Of a stretch of 64,000 nucleotides of DNA, positions 2,779 through 61,809 are shown piece after piece. The stretch spans positions 67,333 to 131,332 of the forward strand of contig JBAXRK010000003.1 in the NCBI GenBank assembly GCA_037131245.1, given 5' to 3'. Position 1 is the stretch's first letter. Each line of letters begins with the position of its first letter. This DNA comes from Candidatus Omnitrophota bacterium (GTDB lineage Bacteria > Omnitrophota > Gorgyraeia > Zapsychrales > Fredricksoniimonadaceae). The position numbers were made by a program, and so were the translations under genes. The notes beneath the pieces were generated by a model. The model was not told the origin of the DNA, did not search any database, and worked only from the letters and a program-made list of their open reading frames with translations.

Positions 2779-3554
2779 AGATCTACGGCAAGAATCCGGT
2801 CCTCGAACGCTTGAAGGCGAACCCGAAAAGCGTGCGTGTTATTTTTGTGCAGTCGGGCCATCCGGAGCACAGCTATATTGCCACGAAGGCCAAGAAGCAT
2901 AATATCCCGGTCCAGGTCGTTGAGGCGCGTAAAATGCTTAAGCTCGGGCGCAGCCTTAATACGCAGGGCTTGCTGATGGATGTTGAGGACTTTGAGTATG
3001 TTGATTATGAGCTGGTGTTGGAAGAAGCAGCGGCCGGCGCGACAGTGTTGGTTTTTATTGACGGTTTAAATGATCCGCAGAACCTGGGCGCGATCATCCG
3101 CAGCCTGGGCTGCCTGGGGGGTTTTACGCTGGTGTTGCCGACCCATGACTCAGTGCATGTAACGGACGCTGTTTTACGCGTCGCTTGCGGCGGGGAAAAT
3201 CACGCGCGGGTCGCGAAAGTCAATAATCTTAACCAGGCTATTTCGAAAGCCAAGAGCGCCGGGATCTGGATCGCCGGCAGCGTGGTCAAGGACGGCGTCG
3301 ACCTTAAGGCGACGAAGTTGCCGTTCCCGCTGGCGCTGGTGATCGGGTCGGAGGAAAAAGGGATCCGTGAGGTCACCTTGCCGCGTTTGGACCTGAAGCT
3401 CACGATCTTCATGGCGCATCCGCGCATGTCGCTTAACGCCGCGCACGCCGCGAGTATTTTTTGTTACGAGATCAATAAACAAAGGCCCAAGCATGCCCCC
3501 AAAACAAAAAGCCAGTCGGGCGAAAAAGTCGACTACGACAACCTCCCGGAGTAA
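2775..3554 (+). CDS. SpoU/TrmH-family RNA 2'-O-methyltransferase (RlmB-like)
   Basis: MKIYGKNPVLERLKANPKSV... is the substrate-binding N-domain. SpoU motifs are DGLNDPQNLGAIIRS, LVIGSEEKG and SLNAAHAASI. The ATG overlaps the upstream stop. Confidence 0.75.
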   Translation: MKIYGKNPVLERLKANPKSVRVIFVQSGHPEHSYIATKAKKHNIPVQVVEARKMLKLGRSLNTQGLLMDVEDFEYVDYELVLEEAAAGATVLVFIDGLNDPQNLGAIIRSLGCLGGFTLVLPTHDSVHVTDAVLRVACGGENHARVAKVNNLNQAISKAKSAGIWIAGSVVKDGVDLKATKLPFPLALVIGSEEKGIREVTLPRLDLKLTIFMAHPRMSLNAAHAASIFCYEINKQRPKHAPKTKSQSGEKVDYDNLPE

Positions 3555-18353: not shown

Positions 18354-20303
18354 ATGATCTCTTTAACGAACGTATCCAAGAACTTCGATGAGCGCATGCT
18401 CATGGACAATGTGACCTTAAGTATTTTCCGTAATGAGCGGATCGGCCTGACCGGGCCCAACGGCGCGGGCAAGACCACGTTGTTCCACCTGATCATGGGC
18501 GATATGCAGCCGACGCAGGGGAATATCACTTCCGAGCGCGGGATCAAGATCGGTTATCTGCCACAGGAAGCGCATTTTGATTCAGAGCGTACCGTGATGG
18601 AAGAGGTCACTTCCGGCGACGACGAGATCCGCGCTCTGCTGGCGGAGAAACATCAGCTTGAAGAGACCGACCGTTGCGGCGAAAATCGTTATGGGGACGT
18701 GATGGAGAAGCTCGAAGCGCTCGGTATCTACGACCTCGAGCACAAAGCCGAGAAGATCCTGGCGGGCCTGGGGTTCAAGGAATATGAATTCAACAAGCCG
18801 ATCGTTCAGCTCTCCGGCGGGTGGCAAATGCGCACGCTGTTGGCCAAACTGCTGACGTACAATTATGACCTGCTTCTGCTTGACGAGCCGACAAACTATC
18901 TGGACCTCACCGCGACACTCTGGCTCAAAGAATTCCTGGGGAAGTACGCGGGATCCTTCATCATGATCTCGCACGACAAGATCTTTCTCAATGACGTGAC
19001 CAATTACACTATTGTCCTCGAGAACGGGAAGATGGCCAAGGTCAAGGGAAGTTACGATGTGTATGAGTCCCAGAAAGAGCTGGAGTACCGTACGCTCGAA
19101 AAGCGCATGAAGGTTATCGACAAGAAAAAAGACCAGCTTGAGCGGTTCACCAGTCGTTTCCACGCCCAGCCTAACCGCGCGTCGGCGGTGCAGAACAAGA
19201 TGAAGATGCTTGATAAGTTGGAAGATGAGAGCGTCGACCTGCCGCGTACCCGTTCGAGCATCAAGGAATTTAATTTTCCGGAAACCACCGAGAGCGGTTA
19301 CACGGTACTCAACCTCGAGCATATCAAGAAGTCGTATTCCGACAAGACCATTTATACCGACCTGAATTTCGAGATCACCAAGGGGCAGAAGGTGTGCCTG
19401 GTTGGCCCCAATGGCGCCGGTAAATCGACGCTGCTTAAGATCCTTGCAGATGTGATCCCTTATGATAGCGGCACGCGCCGCCTGGGCCATGCCGTCAAAA
19501 TGGGGTATTTCTCTCAGACGCGTTTGGATGTTCTTAATCCCAACCGTTCGGCCCTTGAGGAGTTGCTCAGCGCGGTGGGTGGCAGTTTCCCGCAGACCCA
19601 GGCGCGCAATCTGCTAGGTATGTTCAATTATCACGGTGATGATGTGTTCAAGCCGGTCAATGTCCTGTCGGGTGGTGAAAAAAGCCGTTTGATCCTGGCC
19701 AAGCTTTTGATCAATCCGCCGAATTTGATCCTGCTTGATGAACCGACGACGCATTTGGACGTGGCGGGTGTTGAGGCGCTGGTAAGAGCGCTCAAGAATT
19801 ATAAAGGGACGTTGTGTTTTATCAGCCACGACTTGTATTTTATCCGTGAGATCGCCAATCATATCGCTGAAGTCGAAGGCGGCGATATCCGGCAGTATCC
19901 CGGTGGCCTGGATTATTATCTTGATAAGAAGCAGAGCCGCACCTCGGCGGAAGATGCCAACGCGAAGAAAGCGGCCGCCCGTCAGGCGTATGAGGCCCAG
20001 AAAAAGCCGAAGCATGATCCGAACGAACCCGAGCATTTGCGGACCGCGCGCGATAAGCACGAAGCCGCGCTGAAACGCATTAGTGAGATCAAGAATCGCA
20101 TCAAAGCTATTGAGAAGGAAGAAAAAGATCTGGAGACCGAGACTTACGTTAAGTCGCGCGTGATGAACACCGCGTTCACGGGGCGCGGGCGGGAAGATGC
20201 TATTGAGTGCGGTAAACGCCTCAAGGAGATCCAGATCAAATTGCGCGAGCTTGGCAGTGAGAAGAGCCGTTTGGTCGACGAGCGCAACCGGATCAATCAA
20301 TAA
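18354..20303 (+). CDS. ABC-F family ATPase (translation-factor type, Uup/YheS/EttA-like)
   Basis: Two ABC cassettes (GPNGAGKTTL and GPNGAGKSTL; signatures LSGGWQMR and LSGGEKSR). No TM domain. K/E-rich coiled-coil C-terminus. Confidence 0.85.
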   Translation: MISLTNVSKNFDERMLMDNVTLSIFRNERIGLTGPNGAGKTTLFHLIMGDMQPTQGNITSERGIKIGYLPQEAHFDSERTVMEEVTSGDDEIRALLAEKHQLEETDRCGENRYGDVMEKLEALGIYDLEHKAEKILAGLGFKEYEFNKPIVQLSGGWQMRTLLAKLLTYNYDLLLLDEPTNYLDLTATLWLKEFLGKYAGSFIMISHDKIFLNDVTNYTIVLENGKMAKVKGSYDVYESQKELEYRTLEKRMKVIDKKKDQLERFTSRFHAQPNRASAVQNKMKMLDKLEDESVDLPRTRSSIKEFNFPETTESGYTVLNLEHIKKSYSDKTIYTDLNFEITKGQKVCLVGPNGAGKSTLLKILADVIPYDSGTRRLGHAVKMGYFSQTRLDVLNPNRSALEELLSAVGGSFPQTQARNLLGMFNYHGDDVFKPVNVLSGGEKSRLILAKLLINPPNLILLDEPTTHLDVAGVEALVRALKNYKGTLCFISHDLYFIREIANHIAEVEGGDIRQYPGGLDYYLDKKQSRTSAEDANAKKAAARQAYEAQKKPKHDPNEPEHLRTARDKHEAALKRISEIKNRIKAIEKEEKDLETETYVKSRVMNTAFTGRGREDAIECGKRLKEIQIKLRELGSEKSRLVDERNRINQ

Positions 20304-20563
20304 TGAAATTAAAGCTCGATCTCCACGACATTTTCTCCAATACCAACGCGATCGATGCCGCTTTGCGCGGCGTGATGGATGAGGCGATCGAGAAACACGC
20401 CGAATACGTCGAGATCATTCCCGGAAAAGGCAGCGGGCAGTTAAAGAAAACGGTGCTGAGATTCCTGGAAAAAGGGTATAAGGGCCGTTATAGCCGCATC
20501 GAGAAGGACGACAAGAATTTCGGGCGGATATTTGTGCATTTTAATTGGAATAAGCTGCGGTAA
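20303..20563 (+). CDS. Stand-alone Smr-domain protein
   Basis: LDLHD ... VEIIPGKGSGQLKK matches the Smr pattern (LDLHG...IIHGKG.G.L). 86 aa. The ATG overlaps the ABC-F stop (TAATG). Confidence 0.65.
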   Translation: MKLKLDLHDIFSNTNAIDAALRGVMDEAIEKHAEYVEIIPGKGSGQLKKTVLRFLEKGYKGRYSRIEKDDKNFGRIFVHFNWNKLR

Positions 20564-20646
20564 TGGCATTCCGGTAAGGCATTTCGCATCGACCTCCGCT
20601 CCCTCCGGGCCCCGATAGGATCGGTTGATCATGTTTCTTCTAAGGA

Positions 20647-20702
20647 AACGCCGATAGCTCCTATGGCCAGTTGGCCATATGGCAGCTATCGGCGTTATTT
20701 TT
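20647..20702 (+). terminator. Intrinsic terminator of the ABC-F/Smr unit (long imperfect hairpin plus T-run)
   Basis: AACGCCGATAGCT (20647..20659) pairs with AGCTATCGGCGTT (20684..20696). Inner stem TATGGCCA/TGGCCATA. Followed by ATTTTT. Confidence 0.65.
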
Positions 20703-20784
20703 CAAGAATCCTATTAATGAAATACCCAAGCCCCGGGCTCTGATAGAGCCCTGGATGGCTTGGGTATGAATGGTCAAGAATCCT
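20702..20784. repeat. 46-nt near-perfect hairpin (20722..20767) flanked by an 11-bp direct repeat TCAAGAATCCT (20702..20712 and 20774..20784)
   Basis: ATACCCAAGCC (20722..20732) pairs with GGCTTGGGTAT (20757..20767). Inner stem GGGCTC/GAGCCC with a 5-nt loop. The direct repeats were read directly. Confidence 0.5.
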
Positions 20785-20796
20785 TGCCCATTCAAT

Positions 20797-20834
20797 AAAA
20801 AAAGCCCTCGGAATTCGCGGGGCTTTTCTTATTT
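20797..20834. terminator. Bidirectional-looking terminator (A-run, GC stem, T-run) downstream of micro-ORF 1
   Basis: AAAAAAA-GCCCTCG-GAATT-CGCGGGGC-TTTTCTTATTTT. On the minus strand it follows the stop of the 20-aa ORF by ~30 nt. Confidence 0.5.
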
Positions 20835-20860
20835 TGGCAGAAGTATCGCCAAAGAAAAAA

Positions 20861-20923
20861 TTACTTCTTCTTCTTTTTCGCAACTTTCTTGACGGGCTTC
20901 TTAGCAGCTTTCTTAACGGCCAT
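20861..20923 (-). CDS. Micro-ORF 1: 20-aa polycationic peptide MAVKKAAKKPVKKVAKKKKK
   Basis: Strong SD (GAAAGGAGAAA) lies 8 nt before the ATG, with TATAAT (complement of 20975..20980) upstream and its own terminator downstream. The 5' and 3' contexts are paralogous to micro-ORF 2. It is below the ORF-track size cutoff. Confidence 0.5.
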   Translation of the reverse strand: MAVKKAAKKPVKKVAKKKKK

Positions 20924-21070
20924 AAGTAGTTTCTCCTTTCCTGAGGTTATGTGTTGCTTGTATTCAAACCTAAAATTATATTAACACGCGTAATGACGGA
21001 TTCAAAAAATATTTGGATTATTTTTCATTTTGATTTGTCGCGCGAAGGTTAATTGTCGACGAGAACAAAT

Positions 21071-21110
21071 AAAAAGGCTCGCGGACGTTTTTGTCGCGAG
21101 CCTTTTTTCG
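21071..21110. terminator. Bidirectional intrinsic terminator downstream of micro-ORF 2
   Basis: AAAAA-GGCTCGCG(21076..21083)...CGCGAGCC(21095..21102)-TTTTTT. An 8-bp perfect GC-rich stem flanked by A- and T-runs. Confidence 0.65.
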
Positions 21111-21123
21111 GAAAAAGAGAAAA

Positions 21124-21207
21124 TTACTTCTTCTTTTTCGCGGTTTTCTTTGCGGGAGCTTTTTTGGACATCTTGGTGGAGCACTTTTTCGTTGAGCAGC
21201 AAGGCAT
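21124..21207 (-). CDS. Micro-ORF 2: 27-aa Cys/Lys-rich peptide MPCCSTKKCSTKMSKKAPAKKTAKKKK
   Basis: SD GAAAGGAGAAA lies 7 nt before the ATG. The C-terminal codons ...GCGAAAAAGAAGAAGTAA are nearly identical to micro-ORF 1. It has its own terminator. Confidence 0.5.
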   Translation of the reverse strand: MPCCSTKKCSTKMSKKAPAKKTAKKKK

Positions 21208-21321
21208 AAGATTTTCTCCTTTCGTGTGGTTTTGTAACCTGCGATAATGATAACATCAATAGCGATTTCTTTCCATAGGCGTGTTAAATTTTGATGAAGT
21301 TGTTTGCCGGTCCGGCGGTTA

Positions 21322-22434
21322 ATGATGAATAGCACAAAACTTTCGTTATATGTCCATATTCCTTTTTGCGTGAGCAAGTGCCCTTATTGTTCTTTTGCCG
21401 TCGTGGCCGGGGCATTAAAGCATGAAGCGGCTTATGTCGCCGCCCTTGCCCGCGAGCCGTTTTCCGGACGTCCCGCGATTTCCACCATTTATATCGGCGG
21501 AGGCACACCATCCTGTTTATCGATGCGCGGCATAGAAGCCCTGTTTGAAATGATCAATGCCCGTTTTGATGTCGCGCGGGATGCTGAAGTGACATTTGAA
21601 ATGAATCCTGAAAGTGTTGATCCTGCCAAGGCGGTGTTGTTGAAACGCCTGGGTGTTAATCGCGTGAGCTTGGGTGTTCAATCTTTAAATGACCGTACCC
21701 TTGAGCTTCTGGGGCGCCCCCACCGTAACGATGATGCCCGGCGGGCTTTTAGCGTATTGCGCGCCGCCGGATTTGCCGACATCAATGTTGATATGATCTA
21801 TGGTTTGCCCGGACAGGGCGCGCGGGAGGTGCTGGCAGACCTTGGGGACCTGTTATCGTTAGGCAGTGAGCATTGTTCTTTGTACACGCTTAATGTGGAG
21901 GAGCGAAGCCTGTTCTTTGCCCGTCGCATGGAAGTGGATCCGGACGCGCAAGGAGGGCTCTACAGCGCTGTTTGTCAGGCGATGGAAGAAGCCGGCGTTA
22001 AACAGTACGAGGTCAGTAATTTCGCCCGGCCCGGCTTTGAGTCCCGCCACAACATTCACTATTGGAATGGCGGTGATTATATCGGCCTGGGGATGGCGGC
22101 GCATGCCCATCTTGCCGGTGAGCGTTCCTGGAACGCGGATACGCTGCCAAAGTATCTTGAATTGATGAAAGAAAAGGGAACGGCAAAGGTTGGCAGCGAA
22201 AGGTTGCCACCGGCTGAGAAACTGTTGGAGGTTTTTCTCTTCGGCTTGCGGATGAATCGCGGCGTTGACCTGGGTTCCCTTGAGGCGCGCTTCGGCCTGG
22301 AGTTGCCGCACGACAAGAAAGAAAAGCTGGAAAGTTTTATTGAAATGGGCTTGCTAGAGGAGGATGATACGCATATCCGGGCAACGCCCCGCGGGCGGCT
22401 TTTGCTCGATGAACTTGCCGCGAGGATCATTTAA
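21322..22434 (+). CDS. hemW: Radical SAM heme chaperone HemW / oxygen-independent coproporphyrinogen oxidase-like
   Basis: LYVHIPFCVSKCPYCSF (CxxxCxxC), GGGTPS and a HemN_C-like C-terminus. ATG 21322 is preferred over TTG 21304. Confidence 0.8.
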   Translation: MMNSTKLSLYVHIPFCVSKCPYCSFAVVAGALKHEAAYVAALAREPFSGRPAISTIYIGGGTPSCLSMRGIEALFEMINARFDVARDAEVTFEMNPESVDPAKAVLLKRLGVNRVSLGVQSLNDRTLELLGRPHRNDDARRAFSVLRAAGFADINVDMIYGLPGQGAREVLADLGDLLSLGSEHCSLYTLNVEERSLFFARRMEVDPDAQGGLYSAVCQAMEEAGVKQYEVSNFARPGFESRHNIHYWNGGDYIGLGMAAHAHLAGERSWNADTLPKYLELMKEKGTAKVGSERLPPAEKLLEVFLFGLRMNRGVDLGSLEARFGLELPHDKKEKLESFIEMGLLEEDDTHIRATPRGRLLLDELAARII

Positions 22435-22444
22435 AGAGGTCGTG

Positions 22445-23476
22445 ATGGTTTTGTTGAGAAGGTTTTTATTTATATTTGCGGTATTCGGGGCTCTTGTTAT
22501 TGCGGCAGGATGGGTGGTAGTGAACAATGCCGCCGCCATGAGTTATCTGGTACGTCAGGCGGTCGCGCGAAGCCTTAAGGCCGTTGATGTTCGTGAGTTG
22601 CGCTTCGGGTCGCTGGCGTATACCTTCCCGTCAGATTGGGCACTGAAGGATGTTCGCGCCCGTTTGGTGATTGGCCAACAGGTGCTGACGTTTACTTCCG
22701 CCCGTCTGGATATCAGCAATGCGCTCGGGTTATGTTCGATCGGTAGAGGAGCCGGCCTGTCATTGAGTGGAGCGGATGGTTTCTTTGACAAGTTGAAGGT
22801 CAATGGTATTTCCGGCCGGTTTTATCTTACGAGGACGGACCACGGGGTTTCCTACCGCGGCGATGTGTCGGCGGGCACCGTGGCTTGGGACAGGCTCGGC
22901 GTTTCAAAAGTTAAAGCAACCGTTAGCGGCGATGCCGGCCAGTTGAGCCTGCGGCAACTTCAGGCGGATGTATACGGCGGGAAGACCGCAGGCAAGGCTA
23001 TGGTCGCCTTTGGACGAGTTCCTCGGTATGAAGTCAGTGCCGTAGTCGAGAAGGCCGATATCGGCCAGCTGGACAGGGTTCTTGGCGGCGTTTTTCATGA
23101 GCTGGGTGGCACTCTCTCCGGCCGGGTCCGCCTGGCCGGTTCCGGTCCACAGATCGATGGCCTGGACATGAACTGGGACATGCCCTCTGGCGGCAAGGTG
23201 AGCGCGGCGCTTTTGTCGTCGATCGCGACCTACCTTCCGGCATCCCAGGAAAAGAAACGTATTGATTCCCTGATCCGCAGCGGAGGAAAGCTTGCGGTTG
23301 AGGTTTTTTCGTTTACAATAAAGAACGATGCGCCCGATCATCTGAGCGGTGAGATCGGGCTTAAAAGCCGGGAAGCGAATCTGGAGCTCCATATTACGCA
23401 CGAAGTGAAAGTGGACGCCCGGATCGATTCATTACTTCAGGCCTGGTCGGCTGTGTTCAAACAGGAGAGAATATGA
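22445..23476 (+). CDS. AsmA-like / YdbH-like membrane-anchored protein (compact, 343 aa)
   Basis: N-terminal TM helix FLFIFAVFGALVIAAGWVVV, then beta-rich repeats with the AsmA-type pattern (LQADVYGGKTAGKAMV..., LGGTLSGRVRLAGSG). The call rests mainly on synteny with the ynbE-like and ydbL-like genes downstream. Confidence 0.5.
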   Translation: MVLLRRFLFIFAVFGALVIAAGWVVVNNAAAMSYLVRQAVARSLKAVDVRELRFGSLAYTFPSDWALKDVRARLVIGQQVLTFTSARLDISNALGLCSIGRGAGLSLSGADGFFDKLKVNGISGRFYLTRTDHGVSYRGDVSAGTVAWDRLGVSKVKATVSGDAGQLSLRQLQADVYGGKTAGKAMVAFGRVPRYEVSAVVEKADIGQLDRVLGGVFHELGGTLSGRVRLAGSGPQIDGLDMNWDMPSGGKVSAALLSSIATYLPASQEKKRIDSLIRSGGKLAVEVFSFTIKNDAPDHLSGEIGLKSREANLELHITHEVKVDARIDSLLQAWSAVFKQERI

Positions 23477-23652
23477 GATCATTAGCGGTATTGTTGTTGC
23501 TGGCGTTCTGCGCCGGGTGCACGGTGAAAGCGATCGGGGATCCTAACCGCCCGATCACCATTAACGCGCATATCACGATCGATATCAAGGGGCTCGAGAA
23601 AACGGCGTCGGGCATTGAGGATTTTGTCAGCGGCGGAGCAGCCAATAAGTGA
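23473..23652 (+). CDS. ynbE: YnbE-like small lipoprotein (59 aa)
   Basis: MRSLAVLLLLAFCAGC carries a lipobox (L-A-F-C-A-G-C), followed by TVKAIGDPNRPITINAHITIDIKG. ATGA overlap with the upstream gene. It is below the ORF-track cutoff. Confidence 0.6.
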   Translation: MRSLAVLLLLAFCAGCTVKAIGDPNRPITINAHITIDIKGLEKTASGIEDFVSGGAANK

Positions 23653-24182: not shown

Positions 24183-25256
24183 TTAAGCGTAGCGCTTGGC
24201 AATATTGATCGACTGATCGAAGAATTTAAACAGAGCCTCCGCCACCAGCTCTTTCTGGCGGGGGTTCATTTTTAGCGCCGCGAGCTGTTTTCTTGCTTTT
24301 GTTACCCGCACATTGACGGCATTAAGCGCGTAATGCAGGCTTCCGGCTTTGATCAGGAGCAGCTTGATCGCTTCAAGATCGGCCAGCTTTTTGTTCTTCT
24401 TTGTGAAGATGTTCTTAAGATCCCGCAAGTCCTTCCCCTGAAGTTTTTCGAAGGCATGAACGATCAGGAGTGTTTTTTTCTGCTCTTCCAGGTCACTTAA
24501 GATCGATTTCCCGATGGATTCTTCCGTCTCAAATATACCGATGATGTCATCCTGGATCTGAAAGGCCTGGCCGATGCATAGGCCGAAGTCGGCGATCTTG
24601 GGGATCTCGGTTTTTGGCGCTCCGGCAAGGATCGCGCCCGTTACCAGGGGACAGTCAAAGGTGTAGCGCGCGGTTTTCAGCGAATAGTTCAGGAAGACGT
24701 CCTTTTCGTGGACTTGCTTGACATCCACCACCCCGTGGACGGTATCGACGAATTCTCCCATGGCGGTAAAAGCCGCGGTCTGGATGAAATATTTCAGGGC
24801 TTGTTCCTTGCGCAGCGGGTCTTCGTTGATCGACAGGAACGCGTCGATGGCCAGCGCGTAGGTGATGTCACCGGCGATGATGGCCAGGTCAACGCCGAGC
24901 TTGTCGGGGTTGGCGCAGGGGACGGTCTTATTGAGGATGCGGTGCATGGTGGGCTTGCCGCGCCGCAGGTCCGAGCAGTCGATAATATCGTCGTGGATCA
25001 GCATAAAATTATGCAGGAACTCGATGCAGGTCGAGGCATTGTAAAGCGAGCGGGTCGGCCGGCGGCCTTTAGGTGAATAGCCCAGATAGCCCAGGATGAG
25101 CAGGATGGGGCGGATGCGCTTGCCTTCGCGTAAGGAGAATTCGCGGATGCTTTTGTGGAGGATGGGGTTGACCAGGTGCAGTTTATATTCTTTGGCCACA
25201 TGGTCGAGAAAAAGGCCGATGCTCGTGTCGATCTCTTTTTTAAAGGTGTCTAACAT
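24183..25256 (-). CDS. Polyprenyl diphosphate synthase (trans-IPPS)
   Basis: First Asp-rich motif LIHDDIID and second motif FQIQDDIIG, 357 aa. Confidence 0.85.
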   Translation of the reverse strand: MLDTFKKEIDTSIGLFLDHVAKEYKLHLVNPILHKSIREFSLREGKRIRPILLILGYLGYSPKGRRPTRSLYNASTCIEFLHNFMLIHDDIIDCSDLRRGKPTMHRILNKTVPCANPDKLGVDLAIIAGDITYALAIDAFLSINEDPLRKEQALKYFIQTAAFTAMGEFVDTVHGVVDVKQVHEKDVFLNYSLKTARYTFDCPLVTGAILAGAPKTEIPKIADFGLCIGQAFQIQDDIIGIFETEESIGKSILSDLEEQKKTLLIVHAFEKLQGKDLRDLKNIFTKKNKKLADLEAIKLLLIKAGSLHYALNAVNVRVTKARKQLAALKMNPRQKELVAEALFKFFDQSINIAKRYA

Positions 25257-56205: not shown

Positions 56206-59200
56206 TTGATCCGATTCCGGAAGTGTATCTCAGTCATTCTATTGTGTGTATTCGTAGCGTCCGAGATCCTCGGGCGCTCCGGGAATGCGTTTGCGTCCGT
56301 GCCATTGCCTTCGGCGATCCCCATGGTCGCGCTGACGGCCCCGTTCCATCCCGTTATCCTCCAGGGCCTGCAATTCGATCCTGCTGATCCACTGAAAGTC
56401 GATTTTATCGTTGATGAAGGTGATCGCGCTAATGCCGGTCAAGCGGCATTTGAAGCCGAGACCGCGCAACTGGCCAAATATTTTTTGGCCGGGCTGACTC
56501 TTCCCCGAGGTGATCTGTGGGTGAACCTATCGCCTTACGAAGGCGAGCGGATCATCCCCGAGGCGCTGGGCCAGACAGGGCTCGGTAAAGTTTTCCTTGA
56601 ACAGGATTATCTTCTTAAGAACCTGACCGCCAGCCTGATCCATCCCGATAGCGAGACCGGCAAGCGTTTTTGGGCTGAGGCATATAAGCAGGCCTATGAA
56701 AAGTTAGGCACGACGGATATTCCAGTCGACACCTTTAATAAAGTCTGGATCATCCCCGAAAAGCCTGTGGTGTATGAAAAGCCGGGTGCTTCGCATGTAG
56801 CTTATATCGTCGACGCCCGGTTAAAAGTGATGCTGGACAGCGATTATCTGGCGCAGATAAAGAATGTTGTCTCCGACACCAGTATTTCCAAACAAGCCCT
56901 GCGCGACATTATTGTTCCTATCATCGAAAAAGAAGTCAACGAAGGCGCGGGGTTTGCTCCGTTGCGCCAGGCCTATCAGGCGCTTATTTTGGCCGGATGG
57001 ATGAAAGGAAAAATGAGTTCGGCCGGTGGGTTACTGGCTGGCGGTTATATCAATTTGAACAAGACGGCCGGCGTTGAGCACGGCGAGCAGGGCTTGAAGG
57101 ATCGTGTTTGGAACGCCTATCTTGAAGCGTTCCAAAAGGGCGTGTTTAATTTTATCCGTGAAGAAAAAGATCCGGCAACGGATGAGGTCCTCCCGCGCAA
57201 GTATTTCTCCGGCGGGTTCGATTTTGACGCGGCGGAAACGCCTTTAATAGTCGGCGCGTTACAGGCCCCGCTTTCGGGGTCACGCAAAAAGGTGACCTTT
57301 CGGTTTGATCCGCTGCGGGAGTTATCGAAGGCTTCTGGCCTTTCGGCCGTCGCAGCCGCGTCCCGGGAAGTGCCGTGGTCTTTTCTGGATGCCGAAGGGT
57401 ATGAAGCCCGCCAGCTCTTGAGCCGTTCCGGTGAGGATGCTCCGGAACTGCTGATCGTGACGCTCCGTCAGCACGGGTCGACGGTCCCTGACGCCAACAT
57501 TATCTTTGAGTTGTTCCCGCAACAGAAGCTTATCCGTTCCAAGATCTTCATGCCTGCCTTTCCTAAAGACGGCACCGATCGGTCGCCGGCGCTTTTGCGG
57601 CATATTTTTGAGGAGGGGGGATTTGCCGGTTGGCGTTTTTTGGCCAATGCAGCGCCTTCCCAGGCCCGTTCGCTGGCAGCCATGACTGATTTTAAGGTAG
57701 AAATTTCACCTGGGTTCCTGGGCCTAGAGCGTCGCGCGGCATTCAAGCCGGCGGTCAAGGCCGCGACACAAAGCGTGGTGTCCGGTCACGGCCCGGGCCA
57801 GTCTTTGCTGCGGGCGATCAAGGAGTCGAATGTTTTCGGGATCATCCCCGGCAACGTTGATCCGGCCCAGCGTGATGCGGCCGAGAGCACGCGCAAGGAG
57901 CTGGTCAATGACCTGATGGCAAGAGCCAAGCGGGTTCAGGCGGGGTTTAATATTCCGTTTTTACATATGGAGCCGGTGTTTCGTCATATTTTCGCCAATG
58001 GGCTGCTGCGGATGAGGCTGATGTCGGACGCGCTCGAACTCCGGGTGGAACCCGAGTTCCTAAGGCAGATATTGCAAGGACTGGAGAGCGAATTTAACAT
58101 CATTGACGAATTGCTCACGACCTTTAGTGATCCTGATCTGGCGTTTGTGTGGGCCCGTGGGTATATCCGTCATTATGATCAGAACGCCGCCAATAGCGGG
58201 CAGGGGCGAGACCTTTACGGCGCGGCGAAGCTCTTTGTTGACGGGCAGGGAACGAAGCGCTTGGCCGCGATCGCGGTGGATATGCGCGAGCTTAGCCGTG
58301 TCTGGAAAGAAAACACCGCTTCGCTGCATGCCGATGTTACCCGGCTCCTGGTATTGTCCGGTGAGCCCTATCAGATTGTTTTTTCTTCTTCAGCTCGAAA
58401 GTTCATCCCGGTAAGCGGAGAGCTGACGTCAGAAATTTTCAAGAAACGGGAGACGATCAATTTGCAGGACGCGCAGGACGGGGATTTTGTGTACCATCCC
58501 AGGATAGCCGTTGGATTTTCCACGCTCGCGGTGCGGGGGCTGGTCGATGAGGATGTGCACGGCGGCGCCAACAAGGATTTTCGTCATTGGGAATGGCTTC
58601 TGGACGGGGCTATATGGGAGCTGCTTAAGAACGCCCATCAGGGCCGGTACGGCCGCAAGGACGGGATCAAGAATGTCAGCGTGGAAGTGAGCGTTGCGGC
58701 AGAGGTGCTCAGGATCATTATTAAGGACGACGGGGAGGGGATGGACCGCGGGTATTTTGAACTTCTCAGGCGCGGCAGGGACGCCGTCAAGGAGGTATCG
58801 ACGAAAGAGTTCACTGATATCCATGGCCAGGGGCTCGGGGTCGGGGATAGTATTTTGCATCTTAACCAGATCGGCGGTACCGTCAGGATCGATAATCGCC
58901 CACAGGAGGATTTTCCGAAGGATCACGGGGTGACGTATACCATCGAGATCCCGGTTGCCGCCTCTTCGGTGAACGCCGCTGAAATGACAGCCGCGGCGCG
59001 GAAGGTTTTGCTGAGAAAGTTCGACGAAATGTTCAAGTCTTTCTTTGCGGGCAGAGAGCTTCTTTTGGCGAAGCTAGGCCGGGCCGACGAGCCTCTCTAT
59101 CGTCCGTTCATGGAGGCGGCCGATCATGTGTCGCAGGACGCGATGGCGCTCAATTTCTTTGGGGCCCTTCTAAGGGGGCAGGGTCCTGGACCGGCAGTGG

Positions 59201-61809
59201 ATGATTGGGAAAAACTTAACCGTGATATGGTGAGATTCAAGGCGGATGTTGAGGCCATTTTTGTGGAACCTCAGGGTTTGCGGTCCTGGGCCGCTGCGTA
59301 TATGTCGGTAACGAAAAAGGATGACGCAAGCTTGCGCAGCGAACTGGCACGATTTATCCTCAAGGATCGTGCGGGGGAGTGGAATAATCCGGCGTTCTCT
59401 AAAGCATGGTTGACTTACCGGCGGATGTTCGATTCAAGTTGGAAGGAATTCCGCGATGTCTTCAATGCGTATAAACCGGCGGGCGTGGCGGGTATTGACG
59501 CGGCCGAGGGAGTTGAGCCAGGCCGTGAGGCGCTGGTCATTGAGTTGCTGAAAGCACTTCGCGAGATCGACCGGTTCCCGGGCGGCATTGCGTCGTTCCC
59601 CAAATTGTTCCAGTCCGTTGTGCACGGAGCGGTGACGCCTTTTGTGGCCGGGTATCTTTTGGAGGAAATGCCGTCGAACGCGATCGCCTATGAGAAGAGC
59701 GCGTCGGGCACGTGGCAGGAGGTCAGCCTTTCGCGCCTGAAGGCGATGCCCGGGGCTTTTGCTTCCCGTGTTGATATTTATGCCATGCCCTCAAAGATCT
59801 CAGGCATTGTTCCCGCCGTGGTCCTTATTTCGGACGCCGCCGAGAAGTTCACCGATCCCGACGCGTATGATCAGCGCCTGATGATGACGCCGACCCAGGC
59901 ATTGGCGCGGTCTTTGTGGTTCGATCCGGAGCATTTGGGGCTCGCCGACCTGGCTTTTGAGAAAATGATCAAGGCATCCGTGCAGCATTACCTGGCGTTG
60001 AGAAGTTGGGTGCCGCAAGATGACCTTCGGGTAGCCGCAAAAGAGATCATGATGACGCTGGGGCTTAACCGGGAGGCGTTTAACCGGCGCTTCTTTGCGG
60101 ATAACCTTTGGGCGCTTGATATCGGCGATCATCAGATCCTGATAAAGAAGTACTCTGGATTGTGTTTCGATTATTCGAAATTTATAGCGTCCCAGGACGG
60201 CAGTCCTTTCGGGATCCCTAATGAAGTGCGGGGGCATCTTTATTTCTTGCTTGGCGTTGAGTTCATGCATTTGAGGGACGCGTTCTCTAGCCTGATCCTG
60301 GCGATGGGGCGTGAGCACTGGAATGGGGTCAATGGGCATTTGGGGGCACTTAGGGGCGCCATTAAGTCTTACAGCCCCGCGGACGATATCCTTAAGCGCG
60401 TTGGTGACCTCCAGGACAGCGTCACGCGCGCCGAGGGGGCCCTTTATCGCCGGCAAATGCCGCGGGTCCTTTTTGAGACGGATGAATTCCTGAAAACGGC
60501 CCTGCGGGCTTTGGCGCATTCCGAAAAATTGACGGTGGAGGCCCGGCATGAGCTTGTCAGCGGCTTTGTTGTTTCCGCCGAACTTATCGACCGGGTCATT
60601 GATCTGCGCGAGCCGGTCCGTGATGAAAGCGAGGCGCAGCTGGCGTCGCGTCTCTACGCCGAGAAGCAGGCGATGAAATTGTACGAAAATCTTCAGGGGA
60701 TCGAGATCAGGCTGTTTGCCGGGCTAGAGCCCGAAGCGGATCGTTCACAGTCTTTGGCGGCATCGGCTCATCCGCCGATGACGCAAGATATGATGACCTG
60801 GCCGGAGCATGTTCGCGACCGGGCGCGGGTCCTGGAGGCCGGGGGGCGTCATATCGCTGCCGCACGGGATGGTTCTCCGCTTCGGTATCTTAAGGCGGCT
60901 TTTGTCCCTTACGAGGAGACGGTCTCATCTTCCAGGCAGGATATTTATGATGCGGATGAACGGGCCGTCAGCAAGTTTGGCCCGGTGCGCAACAGGATCA
61001 ATCTTTGGGCTAATGATCAGGATGCCCGCCTGCTGATCCTGGAACTGGTCAGAGACGTAGAGGCGGGAACTCCCCTGATCGACGAGAAAGACTTCTTGGA
61101 CCGGCTCAATGCTATTAATATCGCTTTGATCAAGAGCGCGGTGCCGGATGAAGAGAATTATTATTACAGCCGGATGTTTTTTAATCGGACGCTGTTGGAA
61201 AAGATATCGGGGATCGATCGTATCGCGGGGAAAATGCTCACGCCGGCGTTGACACTCGGGCGTTCGGGGCGGCTTTTGGTCCAGTTCAAGCGTTTGATCA
61301 ATGAGATCGAGCATCGCGACCAGTATTCGATGGATTCGTTCCTTGATGCGCTGGAGGCCTTTTACCGGGAGATCATGCGCGGGCAAAGCGGCGAGGATGA
61401 GTTCTTGTTCAAGTCCGGGAATAATTCGCTGGCGATGAACATGGTCAATGCCTTCCTGCGGTTGAACGGGTTGAAGGGGATATCTCACGGCGACCTTGAG
61501 TTTAACGTCCGTGCCGGTCAGCAGGCGGGTTTGCGGGAGGCGTTCAAGCGGCAGATCCAGCAGGCCAATAGCGCGCTGGATTGGACCGCGCCGGCCAAGG
61601 GGCAGGTTGACCGGGCTGAGGCTCCTAATGGAGGTATTGACCTTGGGGCTGCCCTCGCTCCTGTTACACAAGGAGATGTAGGTTCAGGTGACGTTCTTGC
61701 GATGCCGATGACAGCTGATGCGGGCGCTTTGCTTGGTTTTTCGCCGGTCTTGATCGGGATCAAACCGATCGATGACCTTCCTTCGATCTTAGGCCTTTCA
61801 GGAAAATAA
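56206..61809 (+). CDS. Giant (1867-aa) secreted multidomain protein with a conserved N-module, a GHKL-type ATPase core and a degenerate Fic-like motif
   Basis: TTG start with AAGGGA upstream. Signal peptide MIRFRKCISVILLCVFVASEILGRSGNAFA. The N-module (nt 56206..~57220) is paralogous to the next gene. GHKL boxes lie at nt ~58578..58955 (ELLKNA; IIKDDGEGM; HGQGLGVG; TYTIEIP). A Fic-like motif lies at nt ~61402..61470 (FLFKSGNNSLAMNMVNAFLRLNG). The C-terminal tail reads GGIDL...GFSPVLIGIKPIDDLPSILGL. Confidence 0.75.
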   Translation: MIRFRKCISVILLCVFVASEILGRSGNAFASVPLPSAIPMVALTAPFHPVILQGLQFDPADPLKVDFIVDEGDRANAGQAAFEAETAQLAKYFLAGLTLPRGDLWVNLSPYEGERIIPEALGQTGLGKVFLEQDYLLKNLTASLIHPDSETGKRFWAEAYKQAYEKLGTTDIPVDTFNKVWIIPEKPVVYEKPGASHVAYIVDARLKVMLDSDYLAQIKNVVSDTSISKQALRDIIVPIIEKEVNEGAGFAPLRQAYQALILAGWMKGKMSSAGGLLAGGYINLNKTAGVEHGEQGLKDRVWNAYLEAFQKGVFNFIREEKDPATDEVLPRKYFSGGFDFDAAETPLIVGALQAPLSGSRKKVTFRFDPLRELSKASGLSAVAAASREVPWSFLDAEGYEARQLLSRSGEDAPELLIVTLRQHGSTVPDANIIFELFPQQKLIRSKIFMPAFPKDGTDRSPALLRHIFEEGGFAGWRFLANAAPSQARSLAAMTDFKVEISPGFLGLERRAAFKPAVKAATQSVVSGHGPGQSLLRAIKESNVFGIIPGNVDPAQRDAAESTRKELVNDLMARAKRVQAGFNIPFLHMEPVFRHIFANGLLRMRLMSDALELRVEPEFLRQILQGLESEFNIIDELLTTFSDPDLAFVWARGYIRHYDQNAANSGQGRDLYGAAKLFVDGQGTKRLAAIAVDMRELSRVWKENTASLHADVTRLLVLSGEPYQIVFSSSARKFIPVSGELTSEIFKKRETINLQDAQDGDFVYHPRIAVGFSTLAVRGLVDEDVHGGANKDFRHWEWLLDGAIWELLKNAHQGRYGRKDGIKNVSVEVSVAAEVLRIIIKDDGEGMDRGYFELLRRGRDAVKEVSTKEFTDIHGQGLGVGDSILHLNQIGGTVRIDNRPQEDFPKDHGVTYTIEIPVAASSVNAAEMTAAARKVLLRKFDEMFKSFFAGRELLLAKLGRADEPLYRPFMEAADHVSQDAMALNFFGALLRGQGPGPAVDDWEKLNRDMVRFKADVEAIFVEPQGLRSWAAAYMSVTKKDDASLRSELARFILKDRAGEWNNPAFSKAWLTYRRMFDSSWKEFRDVFNAYKPAGVAGIDAAEGVEPGREALVIELLKALREIDRFPGGIASFPKLFQSVVHGAVTPFVAGYLLEEMPSNAIAYEKSASGTWQEVSLSRLKAMPGAFASRVDIYAMPSKISGIVPAVVLISDAAEKFTDPDAYDQRLMMTPTQALARSLWFDPEHLGLADLAFEKMIKASVQHYLALRSWVPQDDLRVAAKEIMMTLGLNREAFNRRFFADNLWALDIGDHQILIKKYSGLCFDYSKFIASQDGSPFGIPNEVRGHLYFLLGVEFMHLRDAFSSLILAMGREHWNGVNGHLGALRGAIKSYSPADDILKRVGDLQDSVTRAEGALYRRQMPRVLFETDEFLKTALRALAHSEKLTVEARHELVSGFVVSAELIDRVIDLREPVRDESEAQLASRLYAEKQAMKLYENLQGIEIRLFAGLEPEADRSQSLAASAHPPMTQDMMTWPEHVRDRARVLEAGGRHIAAARDGSPLRYLKAAFVPYEETVSSSRQDIYDADERAVSKFGPVRNRINLWANDQDARLLILELVRDVEAGTPLIDEKDFLDRLNAINIALIKSAVPDEENYYYSRMFFNRTLLEKISGIDRIAGKMLTPALTLGRSGRLLVQFKRLINEIEHRDQYSMDSFLDALEAFYREIMRGQSGEDEFLFKSGNNSLAMNMVNAFLRLNGLKGISHGDLEFNVRAGQQAGLREAFKRQIQQANSALDWTAPAKGQVDRAEAPNGGIDLGAALAPVTQGDVGSGDVLAMPMTADAGALLGFSPVLIGIKPIDDLPSILGLSGK

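Follow-up and report, generated by a model that had tools for sequence, protein, structure and literature searches.

In a 64,000-nucleotide (nt) stretch of the genome of a Candidatus Omnitrophota bacterium (assembly GCA_037131245.1, contig JBAXRK010000003.1, positions 67,333 to 131,332; hereafter the window), two very short open reading frames (ORFs) lie on the minus strand beside hemW, and comparison with related loci indicates that both are very probably real, translated genes. We refer to them as micro-gene 1, which encodes a type 1 peptide of 20 amino acids (aa), and micro-gene 2, which encodes a type 2 peptide of 27 aa; lysine makes up about half of each. To judge from their composition, the products probably bind nucleic acid or another polyanion. 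The best explanation overall, which we hold to be about evenly poised between right and wrong, is that they are polycations that neutralise and compact the chromosome.

Two lysine-rich micro-ORFs beside hemW

The original prediction was made from the nucleotide sequence of the window, and the ORFs, peptides, Shine-Dalgarno (SD) contexts and 3′ ends that it reported all match that sequence exactly. Both ORFs lie in a gap of about 760 nt between an Smr gene and hemW. This gap appears to be the longest between long ORFs of the window (the ORF list was judged by eye), in agreement with the predicted placement in the largest intergenic region. When both strands of the 64 kb are searched for ATG-initiated ORFs of 12-60 aa with at least 35% lysine, these two are the only ones returned. 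The 8-mer GAAAGGAG also occurs just twice in the window, one copy ahead of each micro-ORF, and GGAG is found within 20 nt upstream of only 3 of the 44 other long ORFs, whose starts are approximate. As a separate observation, the rarity of GGAG suggests that this organism may rely little on SD-led initiation, save for a few genes. The ORFs had been described as too small for standard gene callers, and indeed no gene is called at this place in another assembly of the same organism.

Comparative evidence for translation

We screened the hemW-flanking DNA of 13 relatives for small lysine-rich ORFs. The HemW protein of the window is 100% identical to one from a Candidatus Omnitrophota metagenome-assembled genome, and its relatives form a graded series, from 74% to below 50% identity. 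Type 1 ORFs are present at 12 loci (the window, L001, L002, L081-L088 and L168; HemW identity 45-74%) and encode 16-24 aa, while type 2 ORFs are present at eight (the window, L002, L081, L082, L083, L086, L087 and L168; HemW identity 53-74%) and encode 25-27 aa.

All 20 ORFs keep the ATG (12 of 12 for type 1) and the stop codon, which is TAA in 18 and TAG in two, and all 20 have GAAAGGAGA 6-10 nt upstream of the ATG. Insertions and deletions (indels) inside the ORFs are without exception multiples of three, also in nucleotide alignments made without translation. The mean pairwise differences at codon positions 1, 2 and 3 are 0.18, 0.19 and 0.46 for type 1, and 0.15, 0.12 and 0.47 for type 2; the differences at third positions are 2.5-4 times those at the first two. 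The pooled proportion of synonymous differences (pS) is 0.74 for type 1 and 0.80 for type 2, that of nonsynonymous differences (pN) is 0.15 for both, and the resulting pN/pS of 0.20 (type 1) and 0.19 (type 2) is the lowest of the six frames. Frameshifts or stops in relatives that otherwise conserve the nucleotide sequence, which according to the original prediction would point to a small RNA, were seen at none of the loci. We rejected a small RNA or a chance ORF as an explanation on these grounds (start, frame, stop and SD sequence kept, in-frame indels, pN/pS of about 0.2), and the coding-type pattern of substitution supports the earlier view of real, separate, translated micro-genes.

What speaks against the sense frame is that the pN/pS values come from short sequences and from peptide-guided alignments, which favour that frame, and that one antisense frame is also low, at 0.30 and 0.33 for the two types. 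It is conceivable, although very improbable in our view, that the product is made from the plus strand, where the antisense of AAR and GCN codons would encode a hydrophobic mini-protein rich in Phe, Leu and Ala, such as a membrane peptide or a type I toxin. The antisense frame whose third positions coincide with those of the sense frame contains no stop codon over the length of the ORF in 20 of 20 cases, and yields conserved-looking peptides such as YFFFFFATFLTGFLAAFLTA. However, an open frame at this place is an automatic by-product of Lys (AAR) and Ala (GCN) codons, and its pN/pS is low because of the third positions in common, while still exceeding that of the sense frame. Moreover, the antisense frame has no conserved start codon and no SD sequence, its boundaries range from 28 to 147 codons with unrelated flanks, and the promoter elements and SD sequences described below are oriented for the minus strand (the terminators, with their A-runs and U-runs, could work either way).

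Transcription units

Each micro-gene in this genome is predicted to be a small unit of its own, consisting of a promoter, a strong SD sequence, the ORF and an intrinsic terminator (Table 1).

Table 1. Predicted elements of the two micro-genes and the genes flanking them, in window coordinates
Feature	Position	Strand	Description
Promoter, micro-gene 1	20975-21030	-	UP-like stretch, -35 and extended -10; read from the sequence
5′ untranslated region, micro-gene 1	20924-20971	-	SD sequence GAAAGGAGA at 20940-20932, 9 nt ahead of ATG
Coding sequence, micro-gene 1 (type 1)	20861-20923	-	MAVKKAAKKPVKKVAKKKKK, 20 aa, stop TAA
3′ untranslated region, micro-gene 1	20794-20852	-	Small hairpin at 20852-20834; terminator hairpin and U-run at 20833-20794
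Promoter, micro-gene 2	21247-21275	-	-35 TGGAAA, 17-nt spacer, -10 TATCAT with TG ahead; found by scan
SD sequence and spacer, micro-gene 2	21208-21223	-	GAAAGGAGA at 21223-21215, spacer of 8 nt
Coding sequence, micro-gene 2 (type 2)	21124-21207	-	MPCCSTKKCSTKMSKKAPAKKTAKKKK, 27 aa
Terminator, micro-gene 2	21071-21107	-	AAAAAGGCUCGCG...CGCGAGCCUUUUU, then AUUUGUU
ABC-F gene	18354-20303	+	Flank away from hemW
Smr gene	20303-20563	+	Flank away from hemW
hemW	from about 21325-21343	+	Radical SAM gene of hemW type, divergent from the micro-ORFs

Ahead of micro-gene 1, an A/T-rich UP-like stretch (about 21030-21006) is followed by the -35 element TTGAAT (21005-21000), a 16-nt spacer and the extended -10 element TGT-TAATAT (20986-20978), which is overlapped by TATAAT (20980-20975). 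Our consensus scan missed this promoter because it scores 8/12. The -35 and extended -10 elements are nonetheless kept in register across 10 aligned type 1 loci, with a 5′ untranslated region (UTR) of about 45 nt. Among the five closest relatives (the window, L002, L081, L082 and L083) the type 1 5′ UTR is 88% identical, compared with 84% for the coding sequence, and is conserved far above the flanks; folding found neither a stable fold nor a stabilising 5′ stem-loop in it. The promoter of micro-gene 2 includes an element, TGTTATCAT, that is common to the window, L081 and L083. We also considered a sigma-54 promoter in GGCAAGGATTCTTG, and dropped it, as its spacing is off by one and its -12 element is, by eye, not conserved.

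The terminator of micro-gene 1 has a predicted folding energy of -25.6 kcal/mol (z-score -4.4), and 7 of its 12 stem pairs have compensatory changes across the 12 loci. It looks two-directional, with an A-run on its 5′ side, and our scan caught it on the plus strand too. The terminator of micro-gene 2 folds at -22.5 kcal/mol (z-score -4.3), with compensatory changes at 7 of 11 pairs across loci. For each of the two, none of 200 shuffled sequences folds as well. Promoter and terminator are thus conserved for both micro-genes, in the manner of sigma-70 transcription units, except that the micro-gene 2 terminator is absent in L168 (2591-2802), where the micro-genes lie 59 nt apart with no terminator between them and are bicistronic. 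The claim that the two genes are independently terminated therefore holds in the window and at seven of eight loci, and does not extend to L168.

The strong promoter and the strongest SD sequence in the window suggest abundance, and the products are probably made in large amounts. Codon usage, taken as a proxy for expression, has no clear similarity to that of DnaK or ClpB, with too few codons for a comparison.

Directly 3′ of the micro-gene 1 terminator, on the minus strand at 20600-20800, we observed three very stable hairpins (-93.7 kcal/mol over 201 nt, z-score -8.4), with arms at 20767-20794, 20722-20767 and 20635-20708. The core of the largest, ATGGCC-N4-GGCCAT, has a single copy in the window, and L002 has two copies at the corresponding position (about 3190-3340), where the flanking stems differ. 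These hairpins could be repetitive extragenic palindromic (REP)-like elements, protein-binding palindromes or extra terminators for the converging Smr operon.

Conservation and gene context

Both families always lie upstream of hemW and divergent from it, and hemW is their sole constant neighbour. The far flank varies, with ABC-F/Smr, giant proteins, a P-type ATPase, PGI or a TatA-type gene at different loci, and adjacency to ABC-F/Smr is therefore not a conserved feature. The ABC-F/Smr pair adjoins the micro-ORFs only in the window and L086, and by inference at the P0030 locus, whose gene list includes both genes and a gap like that of the window. The order of the micro-genes relative to hemW is reversed in L086 (2532-2789) and L087 (2454-2710). 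Since the two are always adjacent, even where their order is swapped or where they are bicistronic, they stay together while being rearranged.

The pair of families appears to be restricted to the lineage of Candidatus Omnitrophota. From the hemW loci of other phyla, about 1 Mb in all, our lysine filters passed only two small lysine-rich ORFs (L022 and L137), both unrelated to the micro-genes in sequence and context. A metagenome scan with a DNA pattern for the type 2 motif gave no matches. Another, seeded with HemW, was swamped by the generic YVHIPFCV pattern and found only distant relatives, with one useful locus, L088. Among viral contigs (IMG/VR, L172-L260), there were no matches to the type 2 pattern and 89 to KKVAKKKK followed by a stop codon, all of them C-terminal tails of unrelated proteins; about three-quarters lie in phage proteins of 107 or 116 aa, mostly from marine samples. 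As this ending is found on many unrelated phage proteins, the motif alone is not diagnostic of the micro-gene family.

The gene context bears on two alternative explanations. The original prediction had proposed that the terminal lysine codons might stall ribosomes, in connection with the neighbouring ABC-F/Smr pair. The ORFs would then be regulatory elements, whose translation through the Lys run senses Lys-tRNA or ABC-F/Smr rescue capacity, or acts as an attenuation leader. Runs of 3-5 Lys codons do stand directly ahead of the stop codon, ABC-F and Smr genes do adjoin in the window, and, as in the attenuator leaders of Thr, Phe, Leu and His operons, a terminator hairpin stands after a very short ORF in which one amino acid is enriched. 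The hairpins even have a weak, sub-threshold likeness to the Thr, Phe and Leu leaders of Rfam, but the matches reach 18-26 bits against gathering scores of 49-55, and involve only the terminators. Attenuator leaders precede an operon and have antiterminator pairing, neither of which is present here: at the loci examined, there is no downstream gene or operon on the same strand, the next gene being convergent or different. Apart from the three loci named above, neighbours other than ABC-F/Smr are found. Stalling or sliding on poly(A) has been associated with at least 11 A in 12 nt, the 12A-1 pattern (PMC4552401; see also PMC4363877). The longest A-run in the micro-ORFs is at most 8 nt, and the 11-of-12-A pattern is found in 1 of 20 ORFs, where 3.1-4.6 would be expected from random choice of Lys codons. 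Finally, purifying selection acts on the whole peptide, including a CC pair in type 2 (the third Cys is kept as well, and shifted in L168) and a KAPAKK core, in which respect the micro-ORFs differ from attenuator leaders. Synteny already largely refutes the stalling explanation, and we regard it as improbable.

The second alternative is suggested by hemW, which encodes a radical S-adenosylmethionine (SAM) enzyme. The micro-ORFs could encode precursors of ribosomally synthesised and post-translationally modified peptides (RiPPs), especially the Cys-rich type 2, to be modified by the adjacent HemN-like enzyme. The arrangement would fit in that the micro-ORFs adjoin the radical SAM gene and diverge from it at 12 of 12 loci, and that type 2 has three Cys at eight of eight. 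However, the neighbour is recognised as the housekeeping heme chaperone HemW by the TIGR00539 equivalog model (293 bits, cutoff 205), and HemW orthologues at 35-45% identity are found in many phyla without such ORFs. The conserved neighbourhood contains no transporter, protease, SPASM-type maturase or other biosynthetic gene that we could see, and the peptides are dominated by Lys and have no leader/core organisation. A role as RiPP precursors is thus highly improbable.

Peptide composition and relation to known families

The peptides contain Lys, Ala, Pro, Val and Thr, with virtually no aromatic residue, His or Gly. In the window, each has 11 Lys, among 20 aa in type 1 and 27 in type 2, and neither has an Arg or an acidic residue; elsewhere in the families, Arg occurs only in the type 1 copies of L085 and L088, once in each. 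With a net charge of about +10.5, the peptides have masses of about 2.2 kDa (type 1) and 3.0 kDa (type 2). They consist of 41-55% Lys and 0% Arg, whereas the proteins of the window (54% G+C) have 6.6% Lys and 6.4% Arg. Selection, and not base composition, therefore accounts for the Lys-only make-up of the peptides.

Type 1 has the consensus MA[VT]KK...KK[VT]AKKK, and internal indels that resemble repeat units account for its range of lengths, 16-24 aa. Type 2 has the consensus MxCC[ST][ST]KKC....SKKAPAKKxAKKK. All eight type 2 peptides have three Cys, with the CC pair invariant (8 of 8), and the third Cys follows four residues later in seven and is adjacent in L168 (CCC). The tail reads SKKAPAKK at six of the eight loci, STKAPAKK in L082 and TKKAPAKK in L168. 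The tails of both types can be read as xxKK or xxxKK units: AVKK-AAKK-PVKK-VAKK-KKK in type 1 and APAKK-TAKK-KK in type 2. Using hhalign, type 1 aligns to the C-terminal 18 residues of type 2 with 94% probability and 56% identity, a score that low complexity inflates. This alignment makes common ancestry plausible, and type 2 may be a type-1-like tail with a Cys-rich head. The two genes had been called paralogous, a description that is plausible in this light and cannot be proved with sequences of such low complexity.

Database searches gave the peptides no family. At E-values up to 10, they have no match in Pfam or NCBIfam, and phmmer and profile searches against PDB chains of at least 20 aa, which should include ribosome structures, gave none either. 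With a 43-aa in-frame extension of type 2 as query, 5.8 billion predicted proteins yielded no candidate, and a 30-aa query had no matches among 1.84 billion representative proteins. A description of these peptides was not found in the literature that we could search, nor in Pfam, NCBIfam or PDB. For the DNA, no Rfam family was found in the whole window at the gathering threshold, the intergenic region at E-values up to 10 gave only sub-threshold matches driven by the terminators, and ARAGORN found nothing in the window. By sequence, therefore, the peptides appear to belong to none of the families with which we compared them, yet in principle they resemble known tiny basic proteins.

Candidate functions

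The original prediction had placed the peptides among tiny polycationic ribosomal proteins or histone H1-like nucleoid proteins. This remains fair as a functional class, although the models and profiles do not assign them to Thx, bS22, bL37 or Hc1/Hc2.

Omnitrophota are discussed alongside the Planctomycetes-Verrucomicrobia-Chlamydiae (PVC) group, which includes Chlamydiota. The closest likeness in composition is to Hc1/Hc2-type proteins, and it is one of composition only: Lys-rich short repeats, Ala, Val, Thr or Pro as spacers and no acidic residues. The repeats of the chlamydial histone-like protein Hc2 (HctB) are described as pentamers in which two basic residues are combined with Ala, Val, Thr or Pro; they lack acidic residues and bind DNA and RNA (PMC2848022). 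Basic pairs so spaced, with evenly distributed charge, are common to Hc2, Hc2-like proteins such as Bordetella BpH1, the C-terminal tails, rich in Lys, of Hc1 and of eukaryotic histone H1 (PMC2848022) and the peptides described here. Hc2 and Hc2-like proteins vary in length by indels of repeat units (PMC2848022), as type 1 does. On the other hand, Hc2 has 165-237 aa, with many repeats and conserved flanking domains, whereas the micro-peptides have 16-27 aa and about one repeat block; and Hc2 uses both Arg and Lys, whereas the micro-peptides use almost only Lys, with a period of 4-5 residues.

A second likeness is to protamines and to ScvA of Coxiella burnetii, which are very short, highly basic peptides that condense DNA in a compact cell form; ScvA occurs specifically in the small-cell variant. 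In mammalian protamine P1, a CC near the N-terminus and additional Cys serve for cross-linking, an arrangement that the MxCCxxKKC of type 2 resembles. However, it is Arg, not Lys, that is abundant in protamines and ScvA (as is Gln in ScvA); they have at least 30 aa and no homology to the micro-peptides, and no developmental cycle is known for this organism.

In the explanation that we prefer, abundant, genetically encoded polycations would bind the phosphate backbone of nucleic acids, and so neutralise and compact the chromosome of cells about 0.2 µm in size. Each peptide would act as a single stand-alone block, like one Lys-rich repeat of Hc2 or the C-terminal tail of histone H1. Speculatively, the N-terminal Cys cluster of type 2 might link peptides to one another by way of a metal or disulfides, as in protamines. 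Omnitrophota have been reported to be ultra-small, at about 0.2 µm, in a paper that makes no mention of histones, the nucleoid or lysine (PMC10066038). The nucleoid is the most likely of the main targets considered, although we give it somewhat less than an even chance, and ribosome binding is nearly as plausible.

In the latter case, the peptides would be lineage-specific micro ribosomal proteins, like bTHX, bL37, bS22 and eL41, that sit in a defined rRNA pocket or at an inter-subunit bridge and make the Omnitrophota ribosome more stable. Taken on its own, we consider this rather unlikely. Size class and extreme basicity do match those of bL37 (24 aa), bS22 (33 aa; DUF1713/PF08213), bTHX (about 26 aa) and eL41 (25 aa). 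The genes of the bL37/bS22 type are short and stand alone, the Mycobacterium tuberculosis orthologue of bL37 is unannotated, and some of these proteins were recognised only through ribosome structures (PMC10081302). The very strong expression signals, the conservation above that of the neighbouring hemW and the fixed N- and C-terminal motifs are all consistent with a ribosomal role. The Cys cluster of type 2, with its invariant CC, also recalls zinc-binding small ribosomal proteins. On the other hand, the searches above, up to an E-value of 10, found no match to DUF1713/bS22, Thx or any other Pfam or NCBIfam model, nor to any PDB chain, which also leaves bL37 and bTHX without detectable similarity to the peptides. 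Known tiny ribosomal proteins are rich in Arg, with His, Gly or aromatic residues, whereas the micro-peptides consist of Lys, Ala, Pro and Val, with virtually none of those residues; type 2 further differs in its Cys cluster. Non-specific binding would accommodate the variation of type 1 in length by repeat-like indels more readily than a fixed pocket would, and none of the 12 loci has a link to a ribosomal operon.

Several observations weigh against chromosome compaction. Conservation of the type 1 peptide and of the type 2 Cys motif exceeds that of HemW (type 1 of the window and of L002 agree at 20 of 21 positions, compared with 68% for HemW), and may be due to docking at a specific site, for instance an rRNA pocket, instead of non-specific charge. 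Pfam and NCBIfam give no match to Hc1 or Hc2 models and no detectable homology to any DNA-binding family. Almost every other gene runs in the direction opposite to that of the micro-genes, an unusual placement for genes with very high expression, and the micro-gene transcripts would be only about 150 nt long. Two Omnitrophota loci, L169 and L170 (HemW identity 48-49%), have no such ORF beside hemW and a different upstream operon. All related loci are metagenome-assembled genomes or metagenome contigs, and the functional claims are drawn from composition and expression signals.

The two families might together represent a new class of genetically encoded ‘oligolysine polyamines’, in which a plain polycation and a partner cross-linked through Cys, by metal or disulfide, form a protamine-like network that helps to pack genome and translation machinery into cells of about 0.2 µm. 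At 16-27 residues, these would be the smallest dedicated bacterial proteins that coat chromatin or ribosomes. We offer this extended proposal tentatively, and think it unlikely to be right in full. To our knowledge, the peptides are shorter than any known bacterial nucleoid protein.

Further features of the region

Some features of the surrounding DNA were observed in passing. The window has an extreme strand bias, with nearly all long ORFs on the plus strand and a positive GC skew in every 2-kb bin; its few minus-strand genes include the micro-genes and a polyprenyl synthase gene (24183-25256). On the plus strand at 23473-23652, a small ORF of 55-63 aa, without a Pfam family, lies between the gene after hemW and a DUF1318 gene, and the same position is occupied at most related loci for which we have gene lists, though not in L169 and L170. 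The gene after hemW has a weak, sub-threshold match to AsmA in the window, and its relatives have no Pfam family. An ORF of 1867 aa in the window (56206-61809, plus strand) has only a weak match to HATPase_c. Very large proteins (at least 1207, 2007 and 2572 aa) abut the micro-gene region in L081 (1-2349), L083 (1-2384) and L087 (1-2395), almost without Pfam matches, which fits the giant proteins reported for Omnitrophota.

Implications

For a phylum whose members are known only from metagenomes, the micro-genes extend the annotation by two genes that are conserved and apparently highly expressed. Standard gene callers have a length cutoff that excludes both, and collections of billions of predicted proteins do not contain them. 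They also provide a clean example in which the coding status of micro-ORFs can be settled by comparative sequence alone. The peptides are within reach of chemical synthesis, so binding assays should be straightforward. If they do bind nucleic acid, oligolysine peptides of 2-3 kDa could replace part of the repertoire of nucleoid proteins, polyamines or ribosomal proteins, which would bear on how DNA and ribosomes are compacted in ultra-small cells.

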